Origin: Bacilli bacterium
GTDB taxonomy: Bacteria > Bacillota_I > Bacilli_A > RFN20 > CAG-826
Direction: 5' to 3'
Length of the DNA: 64,000 nt
NCBI GenBank assembly: GCA_045226015.1
Contig: JBGVBY010000021.1
Location: 17,485 to 81,484, forward strand
Shown here piece by piece: positions 1,168-56,872 of the stretch. Each line of letters begins with the position of its first letter. Within the stretch, counting starts at the first letter, position 1. The notes beneath the pieces were generated by a model. It did not search any database. It saw only the letters and a list, made by a program, of their open reading frames with translations, and was not told where the DNA came from. The translations under genes and the position numbers were made by a program.

Positions 1168-4100
1168 ATGAGACACAAGATTATAGGTACATTTTTAGTC
1201 GCGTCGGCCTTGGTTTTTGCTAGCTGTTCGATTGGCAAAGATACAGGCGGCAACACACCTACTCCTAGTACAGAAGTTCCTGTTACTGGAGTTATGATTA
1301 CACCTAAAAATGTCACGATGAAAGTTGGAGAAACCCAAAACTTTATTGCAACCGTTTCTCCAGATGACGCTACAAATAAAGGTGTTGTTTGGTCTATAAG
1401 CGATGCTACCAAAGGAAGCATTACAGCCGAAGGCAAGTTCACTGCTTTAGCAGAAGGAAATTGTACAGTTATTGTAAGCACTAAAGACGGTGGCCATATT
1501 GATACAAGTAATGTCACTATTAATCCTCAAGATGCGCCTGTAACTTTATCTGAAATCAGATTATCCGGAGACTATAAAACTTCTTTCCATTCTGGAGAAG
1601 AATTTACCGCGTCTGGTTTAATTGTTACCGCTTATTATACAAATGGAGACTACGAACAAGTATTTAGATACTCAGTAAGTACTCCTTCTACCACATTGAA
1701 TGATGGTGAAACATCAAGAACAGAAACTGTCACTGTTAGTTATACAGAAGATGGGATAACTGTTAAAAGAACATACGATATCACCATTACAGAAAAAATC
1801 GCTACTAATATCAGAGTATTTGGTGATTATCAATCTGAATTTGAGGCTGGAGAAGAATTCAATCATAACGGAGTCAAATTACTCGCCACTTATTCAGATG
1901 GAACAACTGGAGAAGTCACTCCAACTTCTTTCTCTACCCCAAATATGAATCAATTAGGTCCTCAAGGAGTTAGTGTTTATTATTATAACGGTGAAGAAAC
2001 ATTGCAAGCCACATACACAATTACAATTTACGCTCCTCAGGCAAGCGAAATCATTGGTATTAGACTTGACGGAAATTATCAAACCACATTCTTTGTGGGT
2101 GATAGATTCAATAATGCCGGATTGAATGTCTACGCTATATATGATGATGGATCTGAATTATTATGGAATTTAGGTTATTCAATAACTGATCCAGATATGA
2201 ACACTGCTGGCACAGTAAAAATAACTGTTACCATCACTTACGAAGGACAAAAATTCAGTGCTAGTTACACAATTACAATTTATCCAAAAGAAACTGGCGA
2301 TTCTATCTATGACTTAAACTGTGAAATCCCATATCAATCAGGTGAATATGACATCAAAGGTACTGTCACCTGTACGTGGTATGATTCCTATGGAAATTAC
2401 AACTTCTATATGCAAAATACCGATAGCAATAACCAAACCGGTGGTGTTTATGTTTATAGATCACAAAGTATAGTTGAAGAGGGTTCTTATATCGAAATTA
2501 AAGGAAATAAAGCAGATTATACCTTCTATAGAAACCAACCAGAAATCAATGGTAATAGCAATCCAACTGTCACAGTGTTAAAATCCGCGAGTGAAAACCC
2601 ATACGCAGTTACTCCAATTGAATATACATCAGATAACTTTATTGGATATGATGACACAACAAGTGAAAACTTCATAGACGGAGGATATAGAGGCCCTATT
2701 GAAGTTCTCATTAAAGAAGTTACAGTTCAATCAATAGCAGGTTCATACACAGCGTATGTCAAATTCAGTGACGGACAACTTGCCCCTATCTATTACGGCA
2801 GTAATGAGAGTACAGAAGTTAACGCTATTGGCACTTTGCTTACTAACTACATGAATAACGGAAAGAAATTAGATATTATCGGACATCCGCATTCATCTAC
2901 TTATTCAAATCTTTTACAGTTAGTAGTTAAACACGTTGGCTATATCACTGAAAGTGAAAATCAAGATGTTCCACCTGTGGATGAAAAAATCAAAACATTC
3001 ACTATCGGAGCATTTAACGACTTTCATGGACACATTGAGGAAGAAGCCAGCAGTCTAGGTTTGTCAAGAATGGGTAATCTCATTAGAACATTCACTGAAA
3101 AAGATAATACCCTAGTTCTCTCACAAGGTGATGATTGGCAAGGTTCAATTTATTCCAATTTTAACCATGGAAATTTAGTTAATGATGTTTACGCTCAAGC
3201 AAAATTATCAGCTAGAACTGTTGGCAACCATGATTTTGACTGGGGTGTTGAAAAACTTGAAATTAATACCGCTAGAAGTTATAACGGATATAGAACTCCA
3301 GTACTTGCCGCAAACGTATATGATTATGATCATGAAAATAGAGTTGTTGGCACAGTTCAACAATCAGATATTGGCATTCCTACTGTCACATATACTTTAG
3401 AAAATGGATTGAAAGTTGGTATTGTTGGTATTATTGGTAAATCTCAAATCACTTCTATTAATTCTAGTTTTGTGACTGACATTTGTTTTACAAATCACAT
3501 TAATGTCATTAAAGAAAAAGCAACAGAATTAAGAAATGGTGGCTGTGATGTAGTTATTGCCTCTTGCCATACAGGCCAAGAAGAAGTTTTAGGTAATAAC
3601 CTAAGTAACTACGTTGATTTAGTCTTATGTGGCCATTCTCACAAAGAGGAATCTACATCTGAAGATGGGCTCTTCTATTCACAATGTGGAGCCTATGGTA
3701 GAAACTTTGCTGATATTCATTTAGAATACAACACCGAAACCAAGGAAGTCGCACTATCATCATATAACTTAATTGGTGCTACTAACTATTATAGTTATGT
3801 TACTTATCACGACCCTGAAATCGATAACATTATTTCTGCGTACAATGATCAATGTGCTACTGAAGCAAACGAAGTTTTAGCGTTAAATGTTTCAGGTGAA
3901 TTTGCTGCTAAAGGAGAAGCGGGAAACATGGTTTGTAGAGCAATTTACGACCAATGTGTAGAAGAAGGGCACGGAGACGTTGTCTTAACTTATGTTAACC
4001 AAGCTAGAGCTGGACTATATAAATCACAATGGACATATGCGGATATATATGAATCGTTCCCATTTGATAACATCGTTTATATCGAAGAAGCTAAAGGTAG

Positions 4101-4413
4101 TGATATTCTTTACGAAGTAAGAGGCTGGGGTAATGCATATTTCAATCCTTCATTTGATTGCCAAATTAATCCAAATTCATACTATAAAATTGCCGTTATT
4201 GACTATGTTTTATTCCATGAAAACGACAATAGAATCTTCGACTACTTCAAAGCGTTTGATGGTCATCCAGACAATCAATTATCTATAAATTATAGATTAA
4301 TAATGAGAAAATGGCTGAAAGATAACCATTACAATACAGACAGCAGTAAAGTGCTAAGAAGTTCTGATTTCACAGGTAACGACTACGATAGAAGTAGACT
4401 CACTCAAATCTAA
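1168..4413 (+). CDS. Large surface lipoprotein: Big_2 domain + four Ig-like repeats + OB-like domain + 5'-nucleotidase/metallophosphoesterase (UshA/CpdB-like)
   Basis: Lipoprotein signal MRHKIIGTFLVASALVFASC|S. Big_2-like segment VTGVMITPKNVTMKVGETQNF...GNCTVIV. Four ~85-aa repeats (IRLSGDYKTSFHSGEEF.., IRVFGDYQSEFEAGEEF.., IRLDGNYQTTFFVGDRF..). C-terminal calcineurin-like phosphoesterase motifs GNHDFDWG and CGHSH, followed by a 5'-nucleotidase C-terminal domain. Confidence 0.7.
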   Translation: MRHKIIGTFLVASALVFASCSIGKDTGGNTPTPSTEVPVTGVMITPKNVTMKVGETQNFIATVSPDDATNKGVVWSISDATKGSITAEGKFTALAEGNCTVIVSTKDGGHIDTSNVTINPQDAPVTLSEIRLSGDYKTSFHSGEEFTASGLIVTAYYTNGDYEQVFRYSVSTPSTTLNDGETSRTETVTVSYTEDGITVKRTYDITITEKIATNIRVFGDYQSEFEAGEEFNHNGVKLLATYSDGTTGEVTPTSFSTPNMNQLGPQGVSVYYYNGEETLQATYTITIYAPQASEIIGIRLDGNYQTTFFVGDRFNNAGLNVYAIYDDGSELLWNLGYSITDPDMNTAGTVKITVTITYEGQKFSASYTITIYPKETGDSIYDLNCEIPYQSGEYDIKGTVTCTWYDSYGNYNFYMQNTDSNNQTGGVYVYRSQSIVEEGSYIEIKGNKADYTFYRNQPEINGNSNPTVTVLKSASENPYAVTPIEYTSDNFIGYDDTTSENFIDGGYRGPIEVLIKEVTVQSIAGSYTAYVKFSDGQLAPIYYGSNESTEVNAIGTLLTNYMNNGKKLDIIGHPHSSTYSNLLQLVVKHVGYITESENQDVPPVDEKIKTFTIGAFNDFHGHIEEEASSLGLSRMGNLIRTFTEKDNTLVLSQGDDWQGSIYSNFNHGNLVNDVYAQAKLSARTVGNHDFDWGVEKLEINTARSYNGYRTPVLAANVYDYDHENRVVGTVQQSDIGIPTVTYTLENGLKVGIVGIIGKSQITSINSSFVTDICFTNHINVIKEKATELRNGGCDVVIASCHTGQEEVLGNNLSNYVDLVLCGHSHKEESTSEDGLFYSQCGAYGRNFADIHLEYNTETKEVALSSYNLIGATNYYSYVTYHDPEIDNIISAYNDQCATEANEVLALNVSGEFAAKGEAGNMVCRAIYDQCVEEGHGDVVLTYVNQARAGLYKSQWTYADIYESFPFDNIVYIEEAKGSDILYEVRGWGNAYFNPSFDCQINPNSYYKIAVIDYVLFHENDNRIFDYFKAFDGHPDNQLSINYRLIMRKWLKDNHYNTDSSKVLRSSDFTGNDYDRSRLTQI

Positions 4414-4424
4414 GAGGTAACGAC

Positions 4425-5705
4425 ATGAAAAACTTTGTATTAATTTCTCCAAACTTTCCAGAAACATATTGGCAATTCGCTAGAGCACTTAGAAACGTTG
4501 GCTTTAGAGTGCTCGGTGTTGGTGACGCCCAATACAGTGAACTTAAACAAGAACTCAAAGATTCTTTACACGAATACTATCGCGTAAACAACCTCGATAA
4601 TTTCGACGAAGAAAAAGAAGCGGTGGGTTATTTTGAAAGAAAATATGGACATATTGATTTCTTAGAAAGTAATAATGAATACTGGCTTAGAAAAGATTCA
4701 ATTTTAAGAGACCTCTTTTCAATTAATACAGGATTAAAATCATCGGAATTAGACACTTATCAACGTAAATCTTTGATGAAAGAAAGATTCCAAAAAGCAG
4801 GAGTAAAAGTCGCTCCATATATTCTCGTTAGCGATAAAGAAAGCTTGTTAAAGTTCGCTAACGATCACGGCTTCCCACTTTTTGTTAAACCTGATATTGG
4901 AGTTGGAGCCGAAGAAAGCTTTAAATTAAAAAATATTGAGGAATTAGAGGACTTTTTCGCGAAAAAACACGAAAATTATCAATATATTTGTGAGACATTT
5001 GTGTCTGGTGATATCGTCACTTTTGATGGCATCGCGGATGAAAATAGTGAGGTCGTATTTATGGCTTCATTAGAGTGCCCACCATCAATTAGTGACATTC
5101 TCCACGAAGGAAGTGAGATGTTTTATTACTCCAATCCATTCATTCCAAAAGAGTTTGAAGAAATTGGAAGAAAAACAGTCAAAGCATTCGAACTTAAAAA
5201 TAGATGTTTCCACATCGAATTCTTTAGAGTGAATAAAGATATGCCTGGATTTGCTAAGGTTGGAGATATTGTTGGATTAGAGGTTAATATTAGAACACCT
5301 GGCGGATACACTCCTGATATGCATAACTTCGCTAATTCAGTGAACATGTATCAACTATATGCGAACACAGTTGCGGGATTTAATCCACGTCCAGTTTGTG
5401 ATCCAAAATTCTACTGTGCAACCGCTAGTAGAAGAGATGGCGTTCAATACTTCTATAGCGATGAAGAAGTTTTAAGAACATACGAAAAAGAAATATGCGG
5501 TAACGGAAGATATCCAAAAGTTTTAGCAGGTGTTATGGGTGATCGTTTCTTTATGGCTAAATTCACCAACCTCAAGGACTTGGAAGTGTTTAAAGAATAC
5601 GCAAATAGAAGAAACGTACCTGGCGGTTCTAAAAATAGCGGTTCAATGTTCAACAAAGAAGGAAGTAATGAACCAATTTGCGATACACATATCGATGGAG
5701 CGTAA
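4425..5705 (+). CDS. ATP-grasp domain protein (carboxylate-amine ligase superfamily), function unknown
   Basis: 426 aa. ATP-grasp core is recognisable: KSLMKERFQKAGVKVAPYILV..HGFPLFVKPDIGVGAEESFKL..ETFVSGDIVTFDG... No specific family could be assigned. Confidence 0.55.
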   Translation: MKNFVLISPNFPETYWQFARALRNVGFRVLGVGDAQYSELKQELKDSLHEYYRVNNLDNFDEEKEAVGYFERKYGHIDFLESNNEYWLRKDSILRDLFSINTGLKSSELDTYQRKSLMKERFQKAGVKVAPYILVSDKESLLKFANDHGFPLFVKPDIGVGAEESFKLKNIEELEDFFAKKHENYQYICETFVSGDIVTFDGIADENSEVVFMASLECPPSISDILHEGSEMFYYSNPFIPKEFEEIGRKTVKAFELKNRCFHIEFFRVNKDMPGFAKVGDIVGLEVNIRTPGGYTPDMHNFANSVNMYQLYANTVAGFNPRPVCDPKFYCATASRRDGVQYFYSDEEVLRTYEKEICGNGRYPKVLAGVMGDRFFMAKFTNLKDLEVFKEYANRRNVPGGSKNSGSMFNKEGSNEPICDTHIDGA

Positions 5706-5707
5706 TC

Positions 5708-6214
5708 ATGTCTAATTTGTTATATCTACCAGAAGATTGGGACAACATCTTTAAAGCAGAAAGGGACAATCTTAGATTTGTTCTCCCAGAATTTAAATTC
5801 AATATTGAACATATCGGAGCAACATCAATTAATAATTGTCGTTCTTTTAGAAATGTCGATATTTTAATATCGCTATCTCATTTTAATGACATCTATACTG
5901 CAGCGATGTTACTTAATTCTCGTGGATATAAAATGCTTAACGCGCAATGTAGAAGTGACTGTGCGTTGCTCATTAAACGCAGCAAATATAAAAAGATAGG
6001 TGTCACTATTCGAATCGTTGAATACGGCGGAGATTTCTATAACCGCTGCAAGGCTTTCCAAGTGGTGTTAAGAGAATCTTATGATCGCACTCAAATGTAT
6101 AACAATTTTAGAGAAAAGCTATTTGCAAAATACCCAAAGAACATCAAGAGATATAACGAAGTTAAATACGACTATATCAATTCCCAATTAGATTACTATT
6201 TTAAATTTCAATAA
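5708..6214 (+). CDS. GrpB (UPF0157) family nucleotidyltransferase-fold protein
   Basis: ATG at 5708 lies 2 nt after the upstream stop. NIEHIGATSINNCRSFRNVDILISL resembles the GrpB HIGSTSVPG..IDI motif. The ORF-track start at 5678 is probably too far upstream. Confidence 0.5.
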   Translation: MSNLLYLPEDWDNIFKAERDNLRFVLPEFKFNIEHIGATSINNCRSFRNVDILISLSHFNDIYTAAMLLNSRGYKMLNAQCRSDCALLIKRSKYKKIGVTIRIVEYGGDFYNRCKAFQVVLRESYDRTQMYNNFREKLFAKYPKNIKRYNEVKYDYINSQLDYYFKFQ

Positions 6215-6215
6215 C

Positions 6216-7100
6216 ATGAACGGAATTATCATCACAAACCAAGACATTGGTCATAACGCTTATAAAATAAAACGATTCACTGAGGAAGCTAAACTTCTCG
6301 GTGTTTCTTTAATACATCTCATTAACGATGGAACTTTAGGCATTATTAAAGATAACAACATCATTATTAATCTTCCTAAATGTGATTTTGTCATTTATCT
6401 AGATAAAGACATATATTTAGCAAGACTATTAGAACAAAATGGTTATCGACTATTCAATAAGGCTGATTTCATCAAAATGTGTGATGATAAAAACCTCACA
6501 GACATCATGTGCGCGAACAAAGGTATTAAAATGCCTAAGACAATATGTGGCCCTTTGTTTTATTCTCCTGAATTAAAAGAAGAAAACCTAAAATTCTTGG
6601 ATTTTGTAGAACAAGAATTAGGATATCCTTTAGTGTTTAAGAAAGTTTATGGATCTCTTGGCCTAGGTATATTTTTAGTCAATAACAAGCAAGAACTCAT
6701 CTCTTTATATAAGAAACACTGTCGTGAACCACTACAATTCCAAGAATATATTGCCACAAGTTACGGCAAATCATTAAGGGTTCTTATAATCAATCAAAAA
6801 GTCATTGGAGCGTTTCAAAGATATAACACAAGCGACTTTAGAAGTAACTTCGGAGAAACCGCTACTAGTAAAGAATATAAACTTGAAGGCAAGTATTTAG
6901 AAATCGCTAATAAAATCGCCGAAGCATTTAAGGTTGAATACGCTGGTATTGATTTACTTTTTGGAGAAAACGATGAGCCAGTATTATGTGAAATAAATTC
7001 CAATGCCTTCTTTGAAGAATTTGAGAAAACTACTAAAATCAATGTTGCTAAACTCTTCATTGAAATGGTGATAGAAAAGATTAACAATGAACAAAAATAA
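6216..7100 (+). CDS. RimK-type ATP-grasp ligase (alpha-L-glutamate ligase family)
   Basis: 294 aa. LVFKKVYGSLGLGIFLVNNKQEL...KSLRVLIINQKVIGAFQRYNTSDFRSNFGETATSK...AGIDLLFGENDEPVLCEINSNA is typical of the RimK / glutathione-synthetase-like ATP-grasp fold. Confidence 0.65.
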   Translation: MNGIIITNQDIGHNAYKIKRFTEEAKLLGVSLIHLINDGTLGIIKDNNIIINLPKCDFVIYLDKDIYLARLLEQNGYRLFNKADFIKMCDDKNLTDIMCANKGIKMPKTICGPLFYSPELKEENLKFLDFVEQELGYPLVFKKVYGSLGLGIFLVNNKQELISLYKKHCREPLQFQEYIATSYGKSLRVLIINQKVIGAFQRYNTSDFRSNFGETATSKEYKLEGKYLEIANKIAEAFKVEYAGIDLLFGENDEPVLCEINSNAFFEEFEKTTKINVAKLFIEMVIEKINNEQK

Positions 7101-8010
7101 GAAAAGATTCGAACATCATTCAAAAGACTATTCCGGAATCAAAGAATACCCAGTGAATAAAGATTCTGAACTTTTAGAATTTCTTTTGGAAACCTTAAAG
7201 GGACAGTCACGTAATTCTGTTAAATCTCTTTTAACCAACCATCGTGTTTCTATTGATGGAGCGCCTATTTCTCAATATAACTTCAAGCTCTATAAAGGAG
7301 ATGTTGTTATTATCTCTAAGACTCCAATTCACAAGAAAACACGCAGCAACCTACCTATAATCTATGAAAATAACGAGATGATTGTTATCAATAAACCAAG
7401 TGGTCTATTATCTATCGCTAGTGATAAAGAAAAAGGATCAACTGCTTATAGGATGCTAACTGATTACGTTCAGCAAAAAGACAAACATAATCGTATATTT
7501 GTTGTCCATAGACTTGATGAAGACACTTCTGGAGTCCTAATGGTAGCTAAAAATCCAGAACTACAAAAGGCTCTTCAAGATAATTGGAACGATTTAGTTA
7601 AATCTCGTGGGTACTATGCGATTGTTGACGGCATCATGAAAGAAAAAAGTGGCACGATTAAGTCTTACTTAAAGAAGAATAGCCAAAACATGATGTATTC
7701 ATCTAAAAAAGCTGGTGATGGACAGTTCTCTGTAACGCATTACAAAGTTTTAATGGAAAATGGAAACTATTCACTTTTAGATGTTCATATTGATTCAGGT
7801 AGAAAAAATCAAATTCGTGTCCATTTAGGTGATTTAGGTCATAACGTTATCGGAGATGACAAATACGGTAATCCTACTAACCCTATTAAGAGATTAGGCT
7901 TGCATGCCTATGAACTTGTTTTAACTCACCCACTCACAAATAAAGAACTCAAATTTGTCGCGCCTACACCGAAAGAATTTAAAACTCTTTTCCCAAATTT
8001 CAATAAATAA
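7087..8010 (+). CDS. RluA-family 23S rRNA pseudouridine synthase (RluD/RluC-like) with N-terminal S4 domain
   Basis: HRLDEDTSGVLMVAKN catalytic motif and the C-terminal RLGLHAYELVLTHPLT. S4-like N-terminus HRVSIDGAPISQYNFKLYKGDVVII. Confidence 0.85.
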   Translation: MNKNKKRFEHHSKDYSGIKEYPVNKDSELLEFLLETLKGQSRNSVKSLLTNHRVSIDGAPISQYNFKLYKGDVVIISKTPIHKKTRSNLPIIYENNEMIVINKPSGLLSIASDKEKGSTAYRMLTDYVQQKDKHNRIFVVHRLDEDTSGVLMVAKNPELQKALQDNWNDLVKSRGYYAIVDGIMKEKSGTIKSYLKKNSQNMMYSSKKAGDGQFSVTHYKVLMENGNYSLLDVHIDSGRKNQIRVHLGDLGHNVIGDDKYGNPTNPIKRLGLHAYELVLTHPLTNKELKFVAPTPKEFKTLFPNFNK

Positions 8011-21363: not shown

Positions 21364-21801
21364 ATGAAAATAGCAATCGGAAGCGATCACGGCGGTCTAG
21401 AATACAAAAACGCTATAAAAGAACACTTAAAAACAAAAGGATACACAGTAATTGATGTCGGCACTAATTCAAAAGATAGTTGCCACTATCCAATCTTTGG
21501 AGCCGAAGTAGCTAAAAAGGTATCTTCAAAAGAATGTGATTATGGTGTTGTTGTATGTACTTCTGGAGAAGGCATATCAATAGCAGCCAACAAAATTAAA
21601 GGTGTTAGATGCGGCATTGCTTATAACGATGATGTCGCTAGACTAATGAGACAACATAATAACGCCAATGTCATCTCCTTTGGACAAGCATTCATGTCTT
21701 TGGAAGATGTATTAAAACGAGTTGATATCTTCTTAAATACAGAGTTTGAAGGCGGAAGACATCAAACAAGAGTTGATCTTATCAGCGATTTAGAAAAATA
21801 A
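21364..21801 (+). CDS. rpiB: Ribose-5-phosphate isomerase B (RpiB/LacAB family)
   Basis: MKIAIGSDHGGLEYKNAIKEHLKTKGY...CGTSGEGISIAANK. The start ATG at 21364 has a GGAGA RBS; the track ORF starts 21 nt further upstream. Confidence 0.9.
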   Translation: MKIAIGSDHGGLEYKNAIKEHLKTKGYTVIDVGTNSKDSCHYPIFGAEVAKKVSSKECDYGVVVCTSGEGISIAANKIKGVRCGIAYNDDVARLMRQHNNANVISFGQAFMSLEDVLKRVDIFLNTEFEGGRHQTRVDLISDLEK

Positions 21802-21822
21802 TTAAGTTTTTAAAACTTAAAT

Positions 21823-21853
21823 AGTCCCAACTGGGACTTTTTTTATTTTTTTT
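21823..21853 (+). terminator. Rho-independent terminator after rpiB
   Basis: AGTCCCaactGGGACT stem followed by TTTTTTTATTTTTTTT. Preceded by a second perfect palindrome TTAAGTTTTTAAAACTTAA. Confidence 0.85.
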
Positions 21854-21879
21854 GAATAAAAAATCGAATTTTCTCACTA

Positions 21880-22175
21880 TTTAAATAGTAAGGAGATGTT
21901 TTAAACATTTGCTACAAAACAAACAGGAGGAAACATGATAAAAAGAAACCGAAACCGAAAAGCAATATTTGAAAGCAGATGTAAAAAGCCTTTATTGAAA
22001 GGAAAATTTTACCGAGTGTTAGACTCTACTAACAAGAATCATTCAAAAATAATAAATAAAAAATGAGCAAAAGAATTATCAGGCAGACTTATAGAGAACA
22101 ATAAAAAGGAATAGATAGTTTGGTTTTTGCCGTATGTGGTTCCTCAAAAACACGAAATCCATAACAAAAAGGAGA
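21880..22175 (+). pseudogene. Orphan degenerate copy A of the comFA 5' end (RBS + zinc-finger region + Walker-A region)
   Basis: Collinear nucleotide similarity to 23510-23810. ...taaggagatgtt... corresponds to aaaggagatgtt. agcagatgtaaaaagcctttattgaaagg corresponds to cgtagatgtatttcatttaaaggcg. gaattatcaggcagacttatagagaacaataaaaagg corresponds to gaattatcagacaagctagttgagaactataaaaaagg. atagatagtttggtttttgccgtatgtggttcc (IDSLVFAVCGS) corresponds to the comFA Walker A. Frame is broken by stops. The 44-aa ORF 21936-22070 is part of this fragment. Confidence 0.75.
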
Positions 22176-22179
22176 AAAT

Positions 22180-22521
22180 ATGAAAGATAAATTTAGATAC
22201 AACAAGAAAAGAAAACACTATTCATACATTTTTAAAATTAAAAATGGTTATTGCTCTAACATCTTACTTACAACCCAAACTGAATCTATTCATAAAAAAC
22301 ATGGACAAACAAAAATAGTGAGGAACATCAAATTGTATAGACATCCTAACTCTAGGAAAACTAGTGTAATCGTTTTTATTTATAATCACCCACCATACAT
22401 AGATGCAAAAGAGTCTTTTGATGATAAAAGGTTAGATTGGAAATGGGATATAAATGATAAACGCAATGTTAAGAGGCTTAAGAATTACAAGAAGTACAAA
22501 AAATATTTTGAAAAGAAATAA
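22180..22521 (+). CDS. Small basic hypothetical protein X1 (113 aa, Lys-rich C-terminus), paralog of X2
   Basis: AAAAGGAG RBS. Shares its start region (aaatccataacaaaaaggagRaaatATGAAA) and weak protein similarity with X2. No recognisable domain. Confidence 0.45.
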   Translation: MKDKFRYNKKRKHYSYIFKIKNGYCSNILLTTQTESIHKKHGQTKIVRNIKLYRHPNSRKTSVIVFIYNHPPYIDAKESFDDKRLDWKWDINDKRNVKRLKNYKKYKKYFEKK

Positions 22522-22584
22522 AAAAATCGGTGATGAACTCCAGCTAACGCCAGGTATATCTAACCGACATGAATATTTAATCAC

Positions 22585-22692
22585 ATGAAAGGTGGCGACG
22601 CAATATAGAAAACTATAAGAAGGGGGTAGACAGTTTAGTTTTTGTAGTGTGTGGTTCCCCAAAGACACTAAATCCATAACAAAAAGGAGGAA
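22585..22692 (+). pseudogene. Orphan degenerate copy B of the comFA 5' end (internally deleted)
   Basis: aaaggtggcgacgcaatatagaaaactataagaagggggtagacagtttagtttttgtagtgtgtggttcc matches comFA 23530-23560 joined to 23755-23795; the zinc-finger segment is deleted. Encodes ..VDSLVFVVCGS.. out of context. Confidence 0.7.
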
Positions 22693-22694
22693 AT

Positions 22695-23012
22695 ATGAAA
22701 AAGTTTAGAAGACATTTTAGGATTTATTTCAAAAACAACCATCCTGCATATATTGTTGATGAAGAAGGAAATACCTACGTATTTCATAGAGTAACCCATT
22801 CAAAAACATCAGGAGGTAGAAAGAACTGGATAATTAAAAAGAACCCCATCAAAGGTGATAATAAAACGATGAATATTGTTAAAAAAGAAGAAAGAGACAA
22901 AAAAGCCAGATTCAGTATGTTTGAAATTGAATTAAAAAATGGTGTAGATGTCTCATATCCAGACATAAAACTGACAAGGGAACTGTTAAAGAAAAAGAAA
23001 AACAAGGGCTAG
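22695..23012 (+). CDS. Small basic hypothetical protein X2 (105 aa), paralog of X1
   Basis: AAAAGGAGG RBS. MKKFRRHFRIYFKNNHPAYIVDEEGNTYVFHRVTHSKTSGG.. No recognisable domain. Lys-rich C-terminal tail. Confidence 0.45.
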   Translation: MKKFRRHFRIYFKNNHPAYIVDEEGNTYVFHRVTHSKTSGGRKNWIIKKNPIKGDNKTMNIVKKEERDKKARFSMFEIELKNGVDVSYPDIKLTRELLKKKKNKG

Positions 23013-23539
23013 CCTTGTTATTAGAGTTAAATATCTTTGCTTTTCATAACTCTATTCTTGAAAACCAAGTCGCAATATGCCAAGCATACCCTTGCTTGAC
23101 GCAAAGCACATATTACTTTTCACCAATTACATAGGGGTGATTTTGATGAACTGGACTCCTTTGACACACCTGTTATTTGCTGAAGGTGGAACTCTGTGGT
23201 CATTAGCCACTAGTTGCCTATTTCGATCGTGTCTGGTATCCGGAATTACGCATACAAGTCCTAACTTTGCACCCGGTAAATTATTCAGGGAGGTTTAGAC
23301 CATTGAATCAACGATTCATAATTGGCTGTTTAATTGAGTTTTAATCAAAACTAAGTATCAGCTTCCTTAGTACAGCTCAATTAATATAACAAACGTTTGA
23401 TAAAAATGAAACAAGAAATAAAAAAGTCCATTAAGGACTTAGTGCATCGGGCAGATCGAGCTGCCAATTGGTGCGCGGTTGTCTGAGCCTATTCAGCTCT
23501 GCGTACAACTTGTGAATATATTAAATCAAAAGAAAGGAG

Positions 23540-24704
23540 ATGTTGCAATATAGAAACTTATAAATGTCCTGTTTGTGGCAATACAGATATTCATTCGATC
23601 GGAACGCTCAACGGCAAGCCTTATTGTCGTAGATGTATTTCATTTAAAGGCGAAGAGGTAGAACACAAACAATCTTATCCAAAGAAAGCACCTATACATC
23701 TTGAATATGAGTTATCACCTGAACAGAAAGAATTATCAGACAAGCTAGTTGAGAACTATAAAAAAGGTATAGATAGTTTAGTTTTTGCGGTGTGTGGTTC
23801 AGGAAAGACAGAGATAATACTCAAAGTCGTTCAATATGTACTTAATTGTGGAGAAAAAGTTGCGTTTGCGCTTCCAAGAAGAGATGTATGCATAGAAATA
23901 AATAATAGGTTAAAAGAAATTTTTATTAAAAATACAATTGCATGTGTATATGGAGGTCATACTAAAAGAAAAATTGCCGATATCGTTGTTTTAACAACAC
24001 ACCAATTATACCGTTATAAACGTTACTTCAATTTAATAATCTTAGATGAGATAGATGCGTTCCCTTTTAAAGATGATCCAGTATTAAATTCTATGTTTTT
24101 TGGAGCTTTAAACGGTCATTATATTATGATGAGTGCCACTCCTCCAAAAGAATTAATTAATTACTTTTCAAAAGAAGGAAAAGACATATTAAAACTAGAC
24201 ATTAGATTTCATAGACATCCTTTACCAGTCCCAAATATTAGATCAAATAATACTATCTTCTTATTTCTTATTCTATTAAAGGAATTAAGAAGATTTATCA
24301 AAGAGAAAAAACCAGTATTTATCTTTGCTCCAACAATAGAAGAATGTGAGAAATTGTATCGATATATATCACTATTTATCAGAGGAGGAAATTATGTACA
24401 TTCAAAACGAATTAATAGATCTGAAATCATAAATTCATTTAGACTTGGAGCATACAAATATTTAGTTACTACATCAGTATTAGAAAGGGGCGTAACAGTC
24501 AGAAATTTACAGGTAATTATCCACAAAAGTGACAGTTTTGTCTATGATTCTGGTACTTTGGTGCAAATTTCAGGAAGAGTGGGAAGAAAGAAAGATGCAC
24601 CAGAAGGAGAAGTAATTTTTCTAGCAAACAAAATAACAAAGGAGATGAGAGATGCAGTTAGTGAAATTGAAGACAAAAACAAATCATTGCAAGATGTGTT
24701 TTAA
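23540..24704 (+). CDS. comFA: Competence helicase ComFA (DEAD/DEAH-box, N-terminal zinc finger); start codon unresolved
   Basis: Conserved frame 23487-24704 encodes ..ETYKCPVCGNTDIH...GKPYCRRCISF (zinc finger), VFAVCGSGKTE (motif I), ILDEIDAFP (motif II, DEID) and TTSVLERGVT...QISGRVGR (motif VI). This frame has no in-frame ATG/GTG/TTG before GTG 23790. The ATG at 23540 (RBS AAAGGAG) is in the -1 frame and stops after 7 codons. Confidence 0.7.
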
Positions 24705-47732: not shown

Positions 47733-48010
47733 AATGTGGATAGAAATCATCAATGTGGAAATGTGGAATACTGACAAAATCACACATTTTGAGTAATCCA
47801 CAAAAAATATAGTGATAAAAAATCAATTTGTAGTGTAATAAGAATGAACAATGTTCATTCATATAGTTATCGTTAAACTACATTAAAAATTGTCCACAAA
47901 AATCCACATTTTCCACTAGTTTCCCACAATTTATCCACATACCAAAAAATGTGGAAAACTCAAAAAAATCACTATAGTAAATTTATTCCCTTAAACTTGT
48001 TGTGGAAAAC
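47733..48010. promoter_or_regulatory. oriC region 1: cluster of at least 9 DnaA boxes between rpmH and dnaA, including a perfect TTATCCACA
   Basis: Box-like 9-mers read directly at 47735 (TGTGGATAG), 47753, 47762, 47794 (TAATCCACA), 47890 (TTGTCCACA), 47901, 47910, 47921, 47931 (TTATCCACA), 47950 and 48001 (TGTGGAAAA). Both orientations occur. Confidence 0.85.
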
Positions 48011-48090
48011 CAAAAAATCCAGAAGTTTTTATTAAAAATAAGTACCGTTTACTCTATAATTGTCTCAAAACTCTAAAGGGCAACAGAAAT

Positions 48091-49467
48091 ATGGTTACAA
48101 CAATATCGGAAATGACTAGACTTTGGGAGAAAGTTCTCAAAAAAATAAATACCAGGATCGACAAAAGTGCATATGACTACTTCTTTGCTGATACCTATAT
48201 TTATCAACAACGTGGAAATTCTTTAGTGGTTGCCGTTCCTAATCTTGTTGTCAAAAACACAATTGAAAACAACTATAGTGATGATGTTTTAGAGATTTTA
48301 TCTGAATTAGAGGAACAAAATTTCGAAGTTACCTATGTAACCGCAGAAGAAATCAAAGCAAGCAAAGAAGAGGAAAAGGTTGTTTCCAAACCTTCAAAAA
48401 GCGAACCAGAATTCTTCAAGAACGCATTTTTAAAGCCTGAGTTTACATTCGACAACTTTGTTGTCGGAGACTTCAATAAAGAAGCTCAACAAGCAGCATT
48501 ATATGTTGCCAAAAATGGTGGAACTTTATTCAATCCACTTTTTATCTATTCTCGTTCAGGTTTAGGTAAGACTCACTTACTCTACGCGATCGGCAATTAC
48601 GTCAAAGAGAATAGAATCAAGGATGCGAAGATTTTATACATGTCCGCTCAAGACTTTGTGGATGAATACGTTAGCTACGTTCGTGGAGAACAAGAATCTA
48701 AGTCATTAAAAGCATTCTTCTATGATGTTGATTTGCTCCTTTTTGATGATGTTCAAATTTTAGCAGAGAAGGTTAAAACTGAAGAGATGTTCTTTGCTAT
48801 CTATCAAAACCTCATCAACGCCGGAAAACGCATCATCTTGACTTCAGACAAACAACCCGTTGATCTTAAAGGTTTAGAGGAAAGACTTGTTACCAGATTT
48901 AAGCAAGGATTAACTGTTAAGATTGGTGAACCAGACGTTGACACTTGTGTCGAAATCTTAAAACAAAAATGTATCAATTCTGGATTCAAACCAGAAAAAA
49001 TTGACGCAAATGTCCTATATTTTGTCGCAGAAAATTATTCAAAGGATCTTAGAGAACTTGATGGAGCGTTCAACCAATTAGTGTTCCTTGCCCTTAAATC
49101 TCCAGAGGATAAAACAATCACAATCGATGAAGCCATCAAAGTATTAGCAACTCTAAAAAGTGGCAAAAAAGTCTCAACTCAGTTAAATGAACAAAAGATC
49201 TTAAACGTTGTTGCAGACTACTACAAATTGACTCCATCACAACTCACAGGGAAGGATAGATTTGGTCAGATAGTTCTAGCTAGACACATCGCTATGTATT
49301 TAATTAGAAATAACTTAGATGTTCCACTAAAGAAAATCGGTCAATTGTTCGGTGGTAAAGACCACACAACTGTCATGAGCGCGATCACTAAGGTGGATAA
49401 AGAGTTGAAAACTGACAAGCAATTACAGGACGCAATCGCTGAATTAGAAAAGCGAATTAAGAAATAA
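48091..49467 (+). CDS. dnaA: Chromosomal replication initiator DnaA
   Basis: 458 aa. NPLFIYSRSGLGKTHLL Walker A, LLFDDVQ, C-terminal DNA-binding domain (HTTVMSA). Confidence 0.97.
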   Translation: MVTTISEMTRLWEKVLKKINTRIDKSAYDYFFADTYIYQQRGNSLVVAVPNLVVKNTIENNYSDDVLEILSELEEQNFEVTYVTAEEIKASKEEEKVVSKPSKSEPEFFKNAFLKPEFTFDNFVVGDFNKEAQQAALYVAKNGGTLFNPLFIYSRSGLGKTHLLYAIGNYVKENRIKDAKILYMSAQDFVDEYVSYVRGEQESKSLKAFFYDVDLLLFDDVQILAEKVKTEEMFFAIYQNLINAGKRIILTSDKQPVDLKGLEERLVTRFKQGLTVKIGEPDVDTCVEILKQKCINSGFKPEKIDANVLYFVAENYSKDLRELDGAFNQLVFLALKSPEDKTITIDEAIKVLATLKSGKKVSTQLNEQKILNVVADYYKLTPSQLTGKDRFGQIVLARHIAMYLIRNNLDVPLKKIGQLFGGKDHTTVMSAITKVDKELKTDKQLQDAIAELEKRIKK

Positions 49468-49539
49468 TTTATTAAAAATAAATACCTAGAGATAAAGTCT
49501 CTATGATAAAATTAAAAATGCAGATTTAATAAGAGTTAT

Positions 49540-49600
49540 CCACATATCCACAGTGATAATAATAATTATTAAATTATATAAATATATAAAAAGAAGGTAA
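49540..49600. promoter_or_regulatory. oriC region 2: DnaA boxes (TTATCCACATATCCACAG) plus AT-rich DNA unwinding element between dnaA and dnaN
   Basis: gaGTTATCCACATATCCACAgtg is followed by a ~40-bp, nearly 100% AT stretch (taataataattattaaattatataaatatataaaaag). Bipartite origin as in B. subtilis. Confidence 0.75.
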
Positions 49601-49606
49601 TTCTAT

Positions 49607-50731
49607 ATGAGATTTATAATTAAACGTGATGAATTCTTAAAAGCCTTATTAATAGCAGGAAGAGCAGTTAACTCCAAAAGCAGTGCTGTTCCAGTTTTAG
49701 CGAATTTAAAGTTTGATTTAGATGATAGTGGTTTATCTATTACTGGAAGTAACTATGAACTAACAATCAAAACTACTATTCCATTCGCTATTAACGAAGT
49801 CGAAGTTATTAGAAATGTCCAAGAAGGATCAACTCTTGTTAATTCCAAAATAATCACTGATATGGCAAGAAAGATTGATTCAGAAGAAATCTGCTTTGAA
49901 GTTGTTGATTCCACAATCGCTGTCATTACAGCAGGCAAGATTAAATATAATTTAAATTGCATTAAGGCTAACGAATATCCAGATGTTGACTTAGAACCAA
50001 ACGGTATTCAAATCTCATTAACAAAAGTTGAATTCTCTTCTTTAGTATCTCAAACCGCGTTTGCAGCTTCGTTAAAAGAACAAAGACCAATTCTTACCGC
50101 TATCAATTTAGAAGCTATGGATGGTGTCTTAACTGCCACCACAACTGATAGTGCTAGATTATCTAGAAAACAAATCAGTATTTCTACAGATTTACAATTC
50201 TCTGCTAACGTCCCAGCTAAGATGATGGTGGAAATTGACCATCTTTTAGATGATGTTGAATCTCTTAAGATTGCCTTAAGTGATAAGAAAGCCTTGTTTA
50301 CCTTCGGAAACACCGTCGTAGCGACACGTTTAATCGCTGGTGAATATCCTAACACTAAAAACATTGTTCCACGCGTTACAAACTACTCTTTGGAAGTTAA
50401 TGCCTCAGATTTCTTAAAAGCTATTGATCGTGTTAACATTCTATCTATTGATAGAGAGAACGTCGTAGACTTATATCTCAACGAAGACACAGTAGAGATT
50501 AGTGCAAAATCATCTCAAGTTGGTTCTGCTAGTGAAAGAATCGAAACGTTTAAGTTCGAAGGAAGTAACCTACAAATCAGTTTCAACAGTGAGTTTGTTT
50601 CCTCCGCTATTAGAGCGTTAGGAAGCGAAGATGTGACCTTCCTATTTGTTGGAGAAATGAAACCATTTGTGATCAAAAATCCTAATGACGAATCCATTAT
50701 CCAAATCGTCACACCAGTTAGAACTTATTAA
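49607..50731 (+). CDS. dnaN: DNA polymerase III beta sliding clamp
   Basis: 374 aa, three-domain clamp. MRFIIKRDEFLKALLIAGRAV.. dnaA-dnaN synteny. Confidence 0.95.
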   Translation: MRFIIKRDEFLKALLIAGRAVNSKSSAVPVLANLKFDLDDSGLSITGSNYELTIKTTIPFAINEVEVIRNVQEGSTLVNSKIITDMARKIDSEEICFEVVDSTIAVITAGKIKYNLNCIKANEYPDVDLEPNGIQISLTKVEFSSLVSQTAFAASLKEQRPILTAINLEAMDGVLTATTTDSARLSRKQISISTDLQFSANVPAKMMVEIDHLLDDVESLKIALSDKKALFTFGNTVVATRLIAGEYPNTKNIVPRVTNYSLEVNASDFLKAIDRVNILSIDRENVVDLYLNEDTVEISAKSSQVGSASERIETFKFEGSNLQISFNSEFVSSAIRALGSEDVTFLFVGEMKPFVIKNPNDESIIQIVTPVRTY

Positions 50732-50752
50732 TTAAATTTGATATCAGAAAAT

Positions 50753-50780
50753 GACGCACTCGATGCGTCTTTTCTTTTTG
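50753..50780 (+). terminator. Rho-independent terminator after dnaN
   Basis: GACGCActcgaTGCGTC stem followed by TTTTCTTTTTG. Confidence 0.8.
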
Positions 50781-50905
50781 ATTTTTATCAAACTTAGATA
50801 TCGATTTTAAGGCCTCAAACAGCGTATTTAAGACGTATAATTATTTATGGAATATTATTCCATTTTTGCATTATATCGTGTATAATACCCATAGAGTACG
50901 TTTAT

Positions 50906-51124
50906 ATGGCAACTAGAGTGGTAGAAATCCATAAAGATGAAGAGTACATAACACTTAATGTTCTCCTCAAAATCACCGATATAATTCCTACAGGCGGAAT
51001 GGCAAAACTCTATCTCGCTAATAATGATGTTTACGTCAATGGAGAGAAAGAAAACCGCCGCGGTCGTAAATTATATCGTGGAGATGTCGTTAAGGCGGAA
51101 AAAACGGAATTCTTGATTAAATAA
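50906..51124 (+). CDS. yaaA: S4-domain RNA-binding protein YaaA
   Basis: 72 aa. Conserved position between dnaN and recF. S4-like LYLANNDVYVNGEKENRRGRKLYRGDVV. Confidence 0.8.
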   Translation: MATRVVEIHKDEEYITLNVLLKITDIIPTGGMAKLYLANNDVYVNGEKENRRGRKLYRGDVVKAEKTEFLIK

Positions 51125-51126
51125 AG

Positions 51127-54247
<3,121 letters not shown>

Positions 54248-54265
54248 TCAAAGGAGGAAATAACA

Positions 54266-56872
54266 ATGTTGTTCGAAGATGAAAAATTAGAAAACGAAGT
54301 CGAAGAATCTAACGAAGAATCTGAAGCTAACGAGAATAACACCATTGAAGCTGGTATTGTTGCTGGCTTACAAGATGTTAACACTGTTGATATTGTTAAA
54401 GAATCCTTCTTGGACTACGCGATGTCTGTTATCGTCTCTCGTGCTATTCCAGATGCAAGAGACGGACTTAAACCAGTTCATAGAAGAATTATCTATGGAA
54501 TGAATGAATCTGGTATTACTCCAGAAAAACCACACGTTAAAAGTGCTCGTATTGTTGGAGACGTCATGGGTAAATATCACCCACACGGCGACTCTGCAAT
54601 TTACTTATCTTTAGCAAGATTTGCTCAAGAGTGGAACATGAGGCACTGCTTAGTTGATGGACACGGTAACTTTGGTAGTATCGATGGTGATGAACCAGCG
54701 GCTATGCGTTACACCGAAGCCAGAATGGCAAAGATTGCCCTTGAAATGGTTAGAGACATCAACTGCGACACTGTCGACTTTGTCGACAACTACGATGGTA
54801 GTGAACAAGAACCAAGCGTTTTACCTTCTAGGTTCCCTAACTTATTAGTTAATGGTTCTAGTGGTATCGCTGTTGGTATGGCTACTAATATTCCACCACA
54901 CAATTTAGGTGAAGTTATTGATGGTGTTGTTGCTATTGCACATAACCCAGAGATTTCCACTGTGGAATTAATGCAATATGTCAAAGGTCCTGACTTCCCA
55001 ACTGGTGCTCTTATTTTAGGAAGAAGTGGAATTAGAGATGCTTATGAAACCGGTACTGGTAGTATCGCTATTAGAGCAAAAACTCACATCGAAGAAAGAG
55101 GAGAACACGGTTTAAAGAGAATTGTTATCGATGAAATTCCTTACGGACTTAACAAGGCTACTTTAGTAGAATCCATTGCTTCTTTAGCTAGAGACAAGAT
55201 TGTTGACGGTATTACAGAAGTTAGAGATGAAACTAACAAAAAAGGAACTCGTATCGTTATCGAAGTTCGTAGAGACATCATCCCTGAAGTTTTACTTAAT
55301 CAATTATTTAAGAATACTTCTCTTCAAACCAGCTACGGCATTATCATGCTCTGCTTAGTTGATGGAGCTCCAAAAATTGCTCCACTTAATGTCTTGCTTC
55401 AAAAATACCTCGACTTCCAAGTTGAAGTTATTGAAAGAAGAACCAAATTCTTACTTGAAAAAGATGAAGATAGACACCATATTGTTGTCGGTTTAATTAA
55501 GTGTCACGACAACATTGATGATATCGTTGATATCATTAAAGAAAGCAAAACCCCAGAAGATGCCACAAATGCATTAATGGATAAATATGGCTTCAGCGAA
55601 GCTCAAGTCAACGCTATTTTAGCAATGACATTAAGAAGATTAACTGGTATTGAAGAAGACAAGTTAGAAGCTGAAAAAGTTTCTCTTGAAAACAATATCA
55701 ACGAATATAAACGTATTCTTTCTTCTAGAGAAAACGAAGTTGAAGTTGTTGTTAAAGAATTATTAGAAATTAAAGAGAAATACGCGGACGAACGTAGAAC
55801 TGAAATTACTAACGACGCCGCTAGTATTGATGATGAAGATCTTATTCCTCAAGAAAATATCGTTGTTGCTATCACCCGTGGTGGCTACGTTAAGAGATTA
55901 ACATCTGATTCCTTCAGAGCCCAAAATAGAGGTGGTAGAGGAGTTAGAGGTATGTCCACTAACGAAAACGATATCGTTGAGAACATGGTCTACACCAAAA
56001 CTCACACCGACTTATTATTCTTTACTGATTTTGGAAAAGTGTACCGTATTAGAGGCTACATGATCCCAGAATTCTCTAAAGCTAGTAAAGGTGTACCTAT
56101 TATTAACTTAATCAACATCGAAAAAGGTGAGAATGTTAAAGCTATTATTGCCTGTGATGAATATCAAGAAGATCACTACTTAATGTTCTTCACCAAAATG
56201 GGTGTTGTTAAGAAAACTCTTATCAGTGAATATGAATCCATCCGTCAAAACGGTAAGATTGCTATCTCTATGAGAGAAGGCGATACCTTATTCGCTGTTA
56301 AAGAAGTTGTCGAAGATACCATTATTGGTATCGCTGCTAATAACAGCAAGATGGTCAACTTTAAATGTGACCAAGTTAGACCAATGGGTAGAACTGCTTC
56401 TGGTGTTAAAGGTATTGAACTCGCTGATAACGAAGAAGTTGTCGGTGTTACTACATCCTTAGATGGTTCACACATCTTAGCTATGACATCTAAAGGATTT
56501 GGAAAACTTACACCTGTTATCGACGCAGACGGAGATATGACTTACCGTATCACTAAACGTGGTGCTAAAGGTGTTACAACCTTAAAAGCAACTGATAAAG
56601 TTGGTGATTTAATCGCTGTTAGAGCAGTCAATCTTGAAGATGACTTAATGTGCATCACTAACGCCGGTATTGTTATTAGAACTCCACTCGCTCAAATCAG
56701 AATTTGTGGAAGAAATACATCAGGTGTGAAGATTATGAACCTTGAAGGTAGACAAAGAATTGTCAGTATCGCGATTGTTCCACATGAAGAAATCGACGAA
56801 AACGCTGAAGTTGAAGAAGCTGAAGAAGTTTCTGAAGCAGCAAACGATACTGCCTTACCTTCAGAAGAATAA
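54266..56872 (+). CDS. gyrA: DNA gyrase subunit A
   Basis: 868 aa. Active-site region AMRYTEARM (Tyr). QRDR HPHGDSAIY. GyrA-box region. Acidic C-terminal tail. Confidence 0.97.
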   Translation: MLFEDEKLENEVEESNEESEANENNTIEAGIVAGLQDVNTVDIVKESFLDYAMSVIVSRAIPDARDGLKPVHRRIIYGMNESGITPEKPHVKSARIVGDVMGKYHPHGDSAIYLSLARFAQEWNMRHCLVDGHGNFGSIDGDEPAAMRYTEARMAKIALEMVRDINCDTVDFVDNYDGSEQEPSVLPSRFPNLLVNGSSGIAVGMATNIPPHNLGEVIDGVVAIAHNPEISTVELMQYVKGPDFPTGALILGRSGIRDAYETGTGSIAIRAKTHIEERGEHGLKRIVIDEIPYGLNKATLVESIASLARDKIVDGITEVRDETNKKGTRIVIEVRRDIIPEVLLNQLFKNTSLQTSYGIIMLCLVDGAPKIAPLNVLLQKYLDFQVEVIERRTKFLLEKDEDRHHIVVGLIKCHDNIDDIVDIIKESKTPEDATNALMDKYGFSEAQVNAILAMTLRRLTGIEEDKLEAEKVSLENNINEYKRILSSRENEVEVVVKELLEIKEKYADERRTEITNDAASIDDEDLIPQENIVVAITRGGYVKRLTSDSFRAQNRGGRGVRGMSTNENDIVENMVYTKTHTDLLFFTDFGKVYRIRGYMIPEFSKASKGVPIINLINIEKGENVKAIIACDEYQEDHYLMFFTKMGVVKKTLISEYESIRQNGKIAISMREGDTLFAVKEVVEDTIIGIAANNSKMVNFKCDQVRPMGRTASGVKGIELADNEEVVGVTTSLDGSHILAMTSKGFGKLTPVIDADGDMTYRITKRGAKGVTTLKATDKVGDLIAVRAVNLEDDLMCITNAGIVIRTPLAQIRICGRNTSGVKIMNLEGRQRIVSIAIVPHEEIDENAEVEEAEEVSEAANDTALPSEE

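Follow-up and report, generated by a model that had tools for sequence, protein, structure and literature searches.

Two small basic genes in a comFA-derived repeat block

We analyzed a 64,000-nucleotide stretch of the genome of a Bacilli bacterium (GenBank assembly GCA_045226015.1, contig JBGVBY010000021.1, positions 17,485 to 81,484), referred to here as the window, focusing on two small genes, X1 and X2, in a block flanked by rpiB and comFC/secA. In agreement with the initial annotation, both are intact open reading frames (ORFs) of 113 and 105 codons with ATG starts, and both are annotated as genes in the NCBI contig. Their products are very basic, with Lys and Arg making up 27 to 28% of the residues, and their C-terminal tails are Lys rich, as first described. 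The positions of the two genes and of the features around them are listed in Table 1.

Both ATG codons are preceded by AAAAAGGAG(A/G)AAAT, and both ribosome-binding sites (RBSs) are strong. The shared RBS and start context reported at the outset is genuine: it lies within an 81-nucleotide (nt) direct repeat (D1, 22105-22185 versus 22620-22700; 85% identity), both copies of which match the Walker-A segment of comFA (23763-23843) at 62% across the whole stretch, and the repeat is itself derived from comFA. Further matches to comFA were found at 22070-22107, which is 82% identical to 23727-23764 (D4), and at 22573-22618, which is 78% identical to 23518-23563, where the leader and start of comFA lie (D3). 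In these displaced copies, GSSKT or GSPKT takes the place of GSGKT at the Walker-A codons, and a stop codon follows.

The window holds three cassette layers, namely, a truncated X5-type ORF, then X1, then X2. The X5 protein of a related locus (L032; related loci are given here as L followed by a number) aligned by tblastn to positions 21802-22180 with 11 of 20 residues identical (E value of 2e-4 in a small search space), and the RBS and start context of the cassettes is repeated once more (repeat family D2) at 21915-21942, 5' of the X5-type remnant. X1 and X2 are thus not the sole surviving cargo of the insertions, as had been supposed, given this remnant at 21935-22066 and the cow-rumen-1 antisense RNA described below.

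Table 1. Features of the cassette block and their positions in the window
Feature	Positions	Strand	Description
Truncated third cargo gene, X5 type	21935..22066	+	43-aa ORF with GKFYRVLD
Displaced comFA N-terminal fragment, copy A	22070..22150	+	Last ~80 nt to the Walker-A codons, ..KKGIDSLVFAVCGSSKT, then stop
Left cassette junction CTCAAAAACACGAAATCCATAACA and X1 Shine-Dalgarno	22151..22179	+	Junction consensus common to related arrays
X1	22180..22521	+	Intact ORF, ATG start, 113 aa, pI 10.15; superfamily branch with KHYSYIF...LLTT...HPN...W-W-DINDKRKVKR
X1 cassette 3' module (AAAAAAATCGGTGATGAACTCCAGC...TATTTAATCACA)	22522..22590	+	Kept 3' of X1 genes in all contexts examined
Displaced comFA copy B, internally deleted	22573..22665	+	Leader/start fragment 22573-22618 joined to Walker-A fragment 22620-22665, ..GVDSLVFVVCGSPKT
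Left cassette junction CCAAAGACACTAAATCCATAACA and X2 Shine-Dalgarno	22666..22694	+	From repeat and junction comparison
X2	22695..23012	+	Intact ORF, ATG start, 105 aa, pI 10.21, short form; predicted MazF/CcdB-like beta-barrel and C-terminal helix
Intrinsic terminator of minus-strand transcript	23001..23019	-	From terminator scan; T-tract is the complement of the last Lys codons of X2
X2-linked noncoding core	23182..23374	-	Contains cow-rumen-1 (RF02946) at 23217-23279 on the minus strand
X2 cassette 3' module fused to comFA leader	23421..23535	+	Minus-strand terminator 23440-23424, hairpin-in-hairpin; ends in ATATTAAATCAAAAG and RBS
Active comFA	23550..24704	+	Portable cassette-type exon for the N-terminal Zn-ribbon, reaching Walker A (GSGKT, near 23793-23813)

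Conservation and selection

Homologues of X2 fall into more than 545 clusters at 90% identity and those of X1 into 33. The sole named member of the X1 cluster is labeled "hypothetical protein [Bacilli bacterium]," and the source annotations of the family members offer just "hypothetical" or "unknown." For the loci with DNA available, the ratio of nonsynonymous to synonymous substitutions (dN/dS) of X2 was 0.07 in the core (dS of ~1.5) and 0.21 across 82 codons; for X1, dS was saturated, and dN/dS was ~0.05 where computable. In a comparison of the window with locus L001, identity was 76% for X2, 73% for prfA, 71% for secA, and 53% for the C-terminal part of comFA; between genomes, X2 is as conserved as prfA or secA.

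Because their homologues number in the hundreds, their dN/dS is low, and their ORFs are intact, X1 and X2 are real genes under strong purifying selection, not decaying ones, which supports the original suggestion of a selectable function. The contrary reading, that both are dead ORFs left behind by old insertions, draws on the clearly decayed comFA fragments that surround them and on a few homologues that are frameshifted or truncated (L027, L031, and L032). We give it next to no weight, since the conservation statistics refute it: dN/dS is far below 1 with dS saturated, and the abundance of homologues is the opposite of the lack of homologues that had been named as a sign of decay. The strong RBSs and the confidently predicted fold described below speak against it as well.

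One superfamily of small basic proteins

The initial annotation could not place X1 or X2 in a known family, and our searches agree: neither matched Pfam (with E values up to 10), PHROGs, NCBIfam, or PADLOC. The X3, X4, and X5 proteins and ten remote members were likewise without a match in these four collections, so no mundane family emerged for X1 and X2; the one cargo protein that the scans did identify was the 330-amino-acid YhcG. Plasmid and phage collections searched by tblastn for the X family gave no match, and no relatives turned up when IMG/VR was scanned with the profiles of X1 and X2.

A loosely conserved N-terminal half had been proposed for the two proteins. In pairwise comparison it does not stand, since BLASTP gave just an out-of-register match of 16 amino acids (E value of 0.012, not significant) and hhalign of the narrow X1 and X2 family profiles gave a probability of 0.2%. 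An exhaustive profile search from the X2 family, however, collected 97 clusters at 50% identity, including remote small basic proteins. The resulting broad alignment of X2 relatives (A3) has the consensus HFRxYxKxxHPAxI..G..Y.F..VTHS...G...N.....NP...D..PMYI.K....D.K..F, and the X1-family alignment (A1) matched it with a probability of 96.5% (E value of 9.9e-10). Residues 2 to 104 of X1 are placed on residues 5 to 97 of X2, aligning KHYSYIF with NHPAYIV and LLTT with VTHS, which is the register originally given. As the narrow comparisons alone are not significant, it is this broad-profile match that shows X1 and X2 to be remote homologues forming two branches of one superfamily, at which level the conservation proposed for the N-terminal half does hold. 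X3 and X4 matched A3 with probabilities of 97.3% and 95.9%, respectively; the membership of X5, a family of 129 clusters, is tentative (12.4%; E value of 0.0023). This superfamily of very basic proteins of ~100 amino acids is undescribed and is not covered by Pfam, NCBIfam, PHROGs, or PADLOC.

Cassette arrays at comFA in related genomes

Relatives of X2 were found at 29 loci in species-representative genomes. By their titles, all but one of these are metagenome-assembled genomes of uncultured Bacilli, Bacillales, Erysipelotrichaceae, Mollicutes, or (in one case) Lachnospiraceae, the exception being labeled "uncultured bacterium," and many stem from ruminant gut samples. At 11 of the 29 loci the gene lies between rpiB and comFA, where X1 homologues also occur. 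In 7 of these 11, the N-terminal 80-amino-acid segment of comFA is repeated, in up to five or six copies, each separated from the next by one small gene. The arrays comprise 2 to 6 units of 0.5 to 1.1 kb, and the cargo of a unit is X1, X2, X3, X4, X5, or a YhcG/DUF1016 PD-(D/E)XK nuclease. By our count, 17 of 21 array cargo genes are intact. Of the displaced comFA N-terminal copies, 4 of 10 are intact in the related arrays and neither of the two in the window (4 of 12 overall).

All cargo genes in the arrays of L006, L007, L009, L010, and L032 are preceded by the junction TCnCCAAARACRCKAAAWMCATAA and then an RBS, and three further examples of the same junction (L045 to L047) came from a metagenome scan for it. 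With its preceding bases, the sequence at cargo genes is TGYGGnTCnCC joined to AAARACRCKAAAWMCATAA and an RBS, where the active comFA instead has TGYGGnTCnGGnAARACnGAAAT. The nuclease gene, a cargo of 330 amino acids, sits in cassettes with the same Walker-A junction (L007, 5062-6054; L010, 1619-2994; L046, 1359-2308), and the cargo is therefore not restricted to a single protein family.

Array copies of the comFA N-terminal exon are 87 to 95% identical to that of the window in genomes whose C-terminal part is only 52 to 70% identical (52 to 53% in L007, L009, and L010). In L001, L020, L022, and L027, whose C-terminal parts are equally distant, the N terminus is 52 to 57% identical. At the nucleotide level, identity within comFA drops at the P-loop from about 71 to 85% to about 62 to 64%. 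Because its identity is decoupled from that of the rest of the gene, the N-terminal exon travels with the cassettes; the same decoupling rules out simple vertical conservation of the comFA N terminus. An assembly artifact can be ruled out as well, given that the same architecture recurs in many independent assemblies.

X1 and X2 are the cargo of cassettes that have piled up at the comFA Walker-A codons, an architecture that recurs in related genomes and that supports the original proposal of repeated comFA-targeting insertions. From 5' to 3', each cassette consists of a Walker-A remnant, an RBS, an X gene, a 3' module, and the leader plus N-terminal exon of comFA. Each newcomer would supply a fresh comFA N terminus and displace the older one upstream, where it would decay. 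Movement by a site-specific enzyme acting in trans would fit the data, and so would an exchange of the portable comFA N-terminal repeats through homologous recombination, as could follow natural transformation. The 64-kb window yielded no recombinase or transposase, and phmmer with three tyrosine recombinases found no similar ORF there. The window is origin-proximal housekeeping DNA, with dnaA, dnaN, recF, gyrB, and gyrA (read from ORF starts) within 47995-56872.

The 3' modules show a conservation of their own. That of X1 was aligned across the window, L003, L010, L039, and L042 and is also present in L049 and L057, while the module of the X2 cassette was found 3' of the X1 element in L003 and 5' of comFA in L032, with compensatory stem changes as judged by eye. 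Several distinct modules of ~70 to 110 nt lie 3' of X genes, all ending in ATATTAAATCAAAAG, which is also the end of the comFA leader. An RBS and ATGCAAT often come directly after this end (window, 22573-22587 and 23518-23532; L003, 6680-6830; L057, 3842-4144). Modules with this end are stacked at sites other than comFA too, and they are candidates for a boundary, a promoter, or a small RNA.

No in-frame ATG, GTG, or TTG precedes the Zn-ribbon of the active comFA, and the ATA at 23550-23552 is the likely start. The same position carries ATG in one displaced copy of L032, the ATA allele is also present in L007, L008, L010, L032, and L049, and an out-of-frame upstream ORF of 7 codons (ATG at 23540 to TAA at 23563) overlaps the ATA. 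The allele suggests either initiation at ATA or a deliberately weak translation of ComFA.

X genes away from comFA

The initial annotation had raised the question of whether the homologues always lie next to comFA fragments. They do not: 18 of the 29 X2 loci lie elsewhere, as do about half of the X1 contexts that were sampled. Stand-alone X2 homologues occur in unrelated neighborhoods and have a conserved promoter-like sequence upstream, TTCGGACA-N18-TATTAAT-AGGAGG. Sites of X1 homologues include the interval from rpsL to an unknown gene, the interval from ackA to an amylase gene, and a tandem of X1 with X2 beside trmA. This tandem (L057, 3501-4524) lies between a DUF2804 gene and trmA and carries the inter-gene modules of the window, and multicassette blocks can therefore relocate.

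Remote members of the X family are found in the early region of elements with an integrase and a repressor (also in L024 and L030). These are small integrase-plus-helix-turn-helix-repressor elements (L033 to L038, e.g., L033 at 2848-5408; L030 at 1929-7577; L024). In L033 to L038, the remote X gene overlaps a conserved 54-amino-acid ORF by 4 nt, and a membrane protein with GF(T/S/K)(D/N)W is encoded downstream.

A MazF-like fold predicted for X2

Besides the profile comparisons, which gave the remote homology of X1 and X2, structure prediction had been suggested at the outset, and with AlphaFold2 (AF2) and Foldseek it yielded a MazF-like model for X2. With a shallow alignment, the predicted local distance difference test (pLDDT) score was just 41.5, and the broad alignment was needed; with it, the best model reached a pLDDT of 92.2 and a predicted template modeling score of 0.83, the five models spanning 86.8 to 92.2. 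In this model, six strands are followed by a C-terminal helix. When it was compared with the PDB by Foldseek, all of the top 50 matches were MazF (probability of 0.75 to 1.00; TM score of 0.41 to 0.58), and "PemK-like protein" or "Endoribonuclease" made up most of the top matches among viral models. The best and longest structural matches (80 to 91 aligned residues) are in the toxin superfamily and not among OB, KOW, or single-stranded-DNA-binding proteins. The models indicate that X2 has a beta-barrel fold of the CcdB/MazF type. The prediction was made on X2, and the fold of X1 is assigned by homology; what we propose for the X proteins is the fold, without claiming membership in the MazF family proper.

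Within the X family, H16-P17 and T34 are nearly invariant, and an invariant cluster of His, Thr, Ser, and Asn residues is present. Judged by strand order, H16-P17 and T34 (in T34-H35-S36) would occupy the places of Arg25-Pro and Thr48 of MazF at the strand ends. X5, which looks more like MazF, was tried as a bridge between the two families and rejected, since it reached A3 with just the 12.4% given above and MazF not at all; a PDB sequence search with the X5 profile also returned nothing.

A cow-rumen-1 RNA convergent with the short form of X2

The only Rfam match in the window is cow-rumen-1 (RF02946; 56.3 bits, compared with a gathering score of 53.4), which lies 3' of X2 on the opposite strand. 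The same motif was found in L001 (6437-6498), L002 (486-547), and L019 (4386-4448), and nhmmer detected the conserved core 3' of X2 in L001, L002, L004, L007, L010, L019, and L027. Every short-form X2 examined for it has cow-rumen-1 or its conserved surroundings, including the case in L019, which is outside comFA. Because a minus-strand terminator lies in the last codons of X2, the predicted minus-strand RNA would be convergent with the gene and overlap its 3' end, and in L001 an equivalent hairpin coincides with the stop codon of X2. This arrangement suggests antisense control, in which the cow-rumen-1 RNA would regulate X2 expression. We found no literature on "cow-rumen-1."

The long form of X2 has the tail GRTQxH..RATITS..IK.K.KKKGKK. 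In a comparison of L005, L006, L008, L011, L012, L014, and L015, third-codon identity in the region encoding this tail (GRTQxHxxDxRATITS) was 83%, versus 56% in the X2 core. This indicates an overlapping constraint at the nucleotide level, imposed by a site in the RNA or in the DNA.

Possible activities of the X proteins

The initial annotation had proposed a DNA-binding, anti-competence, or addiction-type activity. The predicted MazF/CcdB fold favors an addiction-type activity or one on nucleic acids, which the lack of an antitoxin gene and of a sequence match to MazF does not. The fold, together with the marked excess of basic residues and the invariant cluster of His, Thr, Ser, and Asn, leads us to infer that X proteins would bind, and probably cleave sequence-specifically, RNA or other single-stranded nucleic acid; RNase or RNA-binding activity is a prediction from these features, and any effect on competence is conjecture. 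The X proteins would then be RNA-targeting effectors, toxin-like or active in defense or in the modulation of competence, kept as selected cargo and not as the enzymes of cassette mobility. We favor this reading tentatively, holding it plausible but somewhat short of probable. Several findings weigh against it on the side of the fold: hhalign of A3 against Bacillus subtilis MazF (its sequence verified against 4me7_A) gave a probability of 0.09%, PDB sequence searches with three X-family profiles found nothing meaningful, Pfam showed no MazF/PemK (PF02452) match for X1, X2, or ten remote members, the equivalence of H16 and T34 to the catalytic residues of MazF comes from strand order, and the fold of X1 comes from homology. 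Its biology raises further objections, as no antitoxin partner is evident, many stand-alone X2 genes share no neighbor gene and have a promoter-like region of their own, and an intact X gene often follows a broken comFA N-terminal ORF. An RNA antitoxin made of tandem repeats is absent as well, since Tandem Repeats Finder on 21750-23850 gave trivial low-complexity repeats only. The antisense region folds with unexceptional energy (z of -1.4), and cow-rumen-1 is absent at long-form X2 tails and at X1, so that antisense control cannot be general. Finally, a lethal toxin would be unexpected as an unguarded, multicopy, highly conserved gene, and several X paralogues are tolerated per genome.

The tolerance of multiple paralogues and the lack of an antitoxin would fit a noncatalytic role, in which X is a basic beta-barrel chaperone or protector of single-stranded DNA or RNA that works with the competence machinery, for example, by coating or handing over incoming single-stranded DNA or by binding the Zn-ribbon domain of ComFA. 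A pI above 10, the high Lys/Arg content, the housekeeping-like conservation, and the position of X directly 5' of comFA even without an array (L001, L020, L022, and L027) point the same way. We nevertheless consider this binder role unlikely, although a serious contender, because its best structural matches are not the ones expected, many members lie far from comFA or in prophage-like early regions, and the invariant polar cluster resembles an active site more than a generic basic surface. A role in cassette mobility or targeting, with X recognizing the comFA Walker-A codons in the manner of a homing endonuclease or a recombination directionality factor, would fit the presence of exactly one protein gene per cassette with no recombinase nearby or elsewhere in the window, the insertion at highly conserved active-site codons typical of homing elements, and the nuclease nature of the alternative cargo YhcG/DUF1016. 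It is very unlikely in our judgment: the MazF/CcdB fold is not known to cut or recombine double-stranded DNA, X is stably kept at many non-comFA sites without target duplication, and X1 to X4 share one junction sequence despite their high divergence, which disfavors X as the determinant of the target.

The order and spacing of the genes (a small ORF, 15 to 30 nt, then X), together with the MazF-like fold, also recall type II toxin-antitoxin (TA) operons, in which case the truncated ComFA N-terminal peptide encoded upstream would be the antitoxin of X. This candidate was rejected as highly improbable, being largely refuted by the pattern of decay: the displaced comFA ORFs are broken in 6 of 10 related copies and in both copies of the window with the downstream X intact, and stand-alone X genes have no such partner. 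Returning to the RNA-targeting effector, a more far-reaching version of it would have integrase-less mini-cassettes, as a mobile unit of a kind not recognized before, home to the comFA Walker-A codons, restore the gene with their portable N-terminal exon, and spread between species by natural transformation with this exon as homology arm, while X would act as a solitary RNase tuning competence or as a defense or addiction factor, the short form being held in check by cow-rumen-1. As a whole, this scenario is speculative and should be taken as improbable.

Comparison with known toxins and mobile elements

The predicted shape of X is closest to MazF/PemK and the type III toxins, yet X shows neither the sequence similarity nor the partner of either. 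Like MazF/PemK/Kid (PF02452), X proteins are small (about 100 to 115 amino acids) and, by strand order, would have a basic or His residue before the Pro opening strand 2 and a Thr closing strand 3. They differ in having no detectable sequence similarity to MazF, no MazE/PemI-type antitoxin gene, a much shorter beta1-beta2 loop, and an extremely basic composition and in being either solitary or the cargo of comFA-rebuilding cassettes. Type III toxins (ToxN/AbiQ/CptN) have 155 to 170 amino acids, compared with about 100 in X, and are preceded by tandem antitoxin-RNA repeats on the same strand, whereas the window has no tandem repeats and the RNA of X2 is single copy, downstream, antisense, and present with the short form only. 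The convergent arrangement of X2 and cow-rumen-1, with the antisense terminator in the last codons, is reminiscent of type I TA systems such as txpA/RatA and bsrG/SR4 of B. subtilis. Classical type I toxins, however, are short hydrophobic peptides, which X2 is not; X1 and long-form X2 lack such an RNA, and any interaction or toxicity in the X2/cow-rumen-1 pair is hypothetical. Type I toxins of the nuclease type are represented by SymE and RalR.

The promoter-proximal stacking of varied single-gene cassettes at one fixed site with a common junction is shared with integrons. In contrast to these, the array has no adjacent IntI (nor is there one in the window), no imperfect inverted repeat of the attC type was found in the repeat analysis, the recombination site is a P-loop coding sequence, and the cassette carries a replacement 5' exon of its target gene. 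Competence genes hit by prophages or islands include comFA (in S. equi, S. suis, and B. cereus/thuringiensis), comK, comYC, and comM. For comFA, integrase-bearing prophages that disrupt it are documented in Streptococcus and Bacillus (PMC4774983, PMC12378983). The targeting of comFA and the presence of remote X members in integrase-plus-repressor elements connect these prophages with the present cassettes, but the prophages are tens of kilobases long, have their own integrase, and disrupt comFA, while units of the size found here carry one small gene and no integrase that we could find and regenerate the comFA frame. Our literature search on comFA cassettes found nothing beyond integrase-driven prophage insertions. 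The cassette context is unusual and apparently undescribed, and X itself is a sequence-orphan variant inside a known fold class.

These results provide an unnamed protein family abundant in rumen and gut Bacilli with a predicted fold and a testable activity, and cow-rumen-1, an orphan Rfam motif, gains its first consistent genetic partner. X proteins would be unusual MazF-fold proteins living without a protein antitoxin. The cassette system, for its part, would target and yet repair a competence gene, unlike the prophages that disrupt comFA, which bears on the conflict between mobile elements and transformation.

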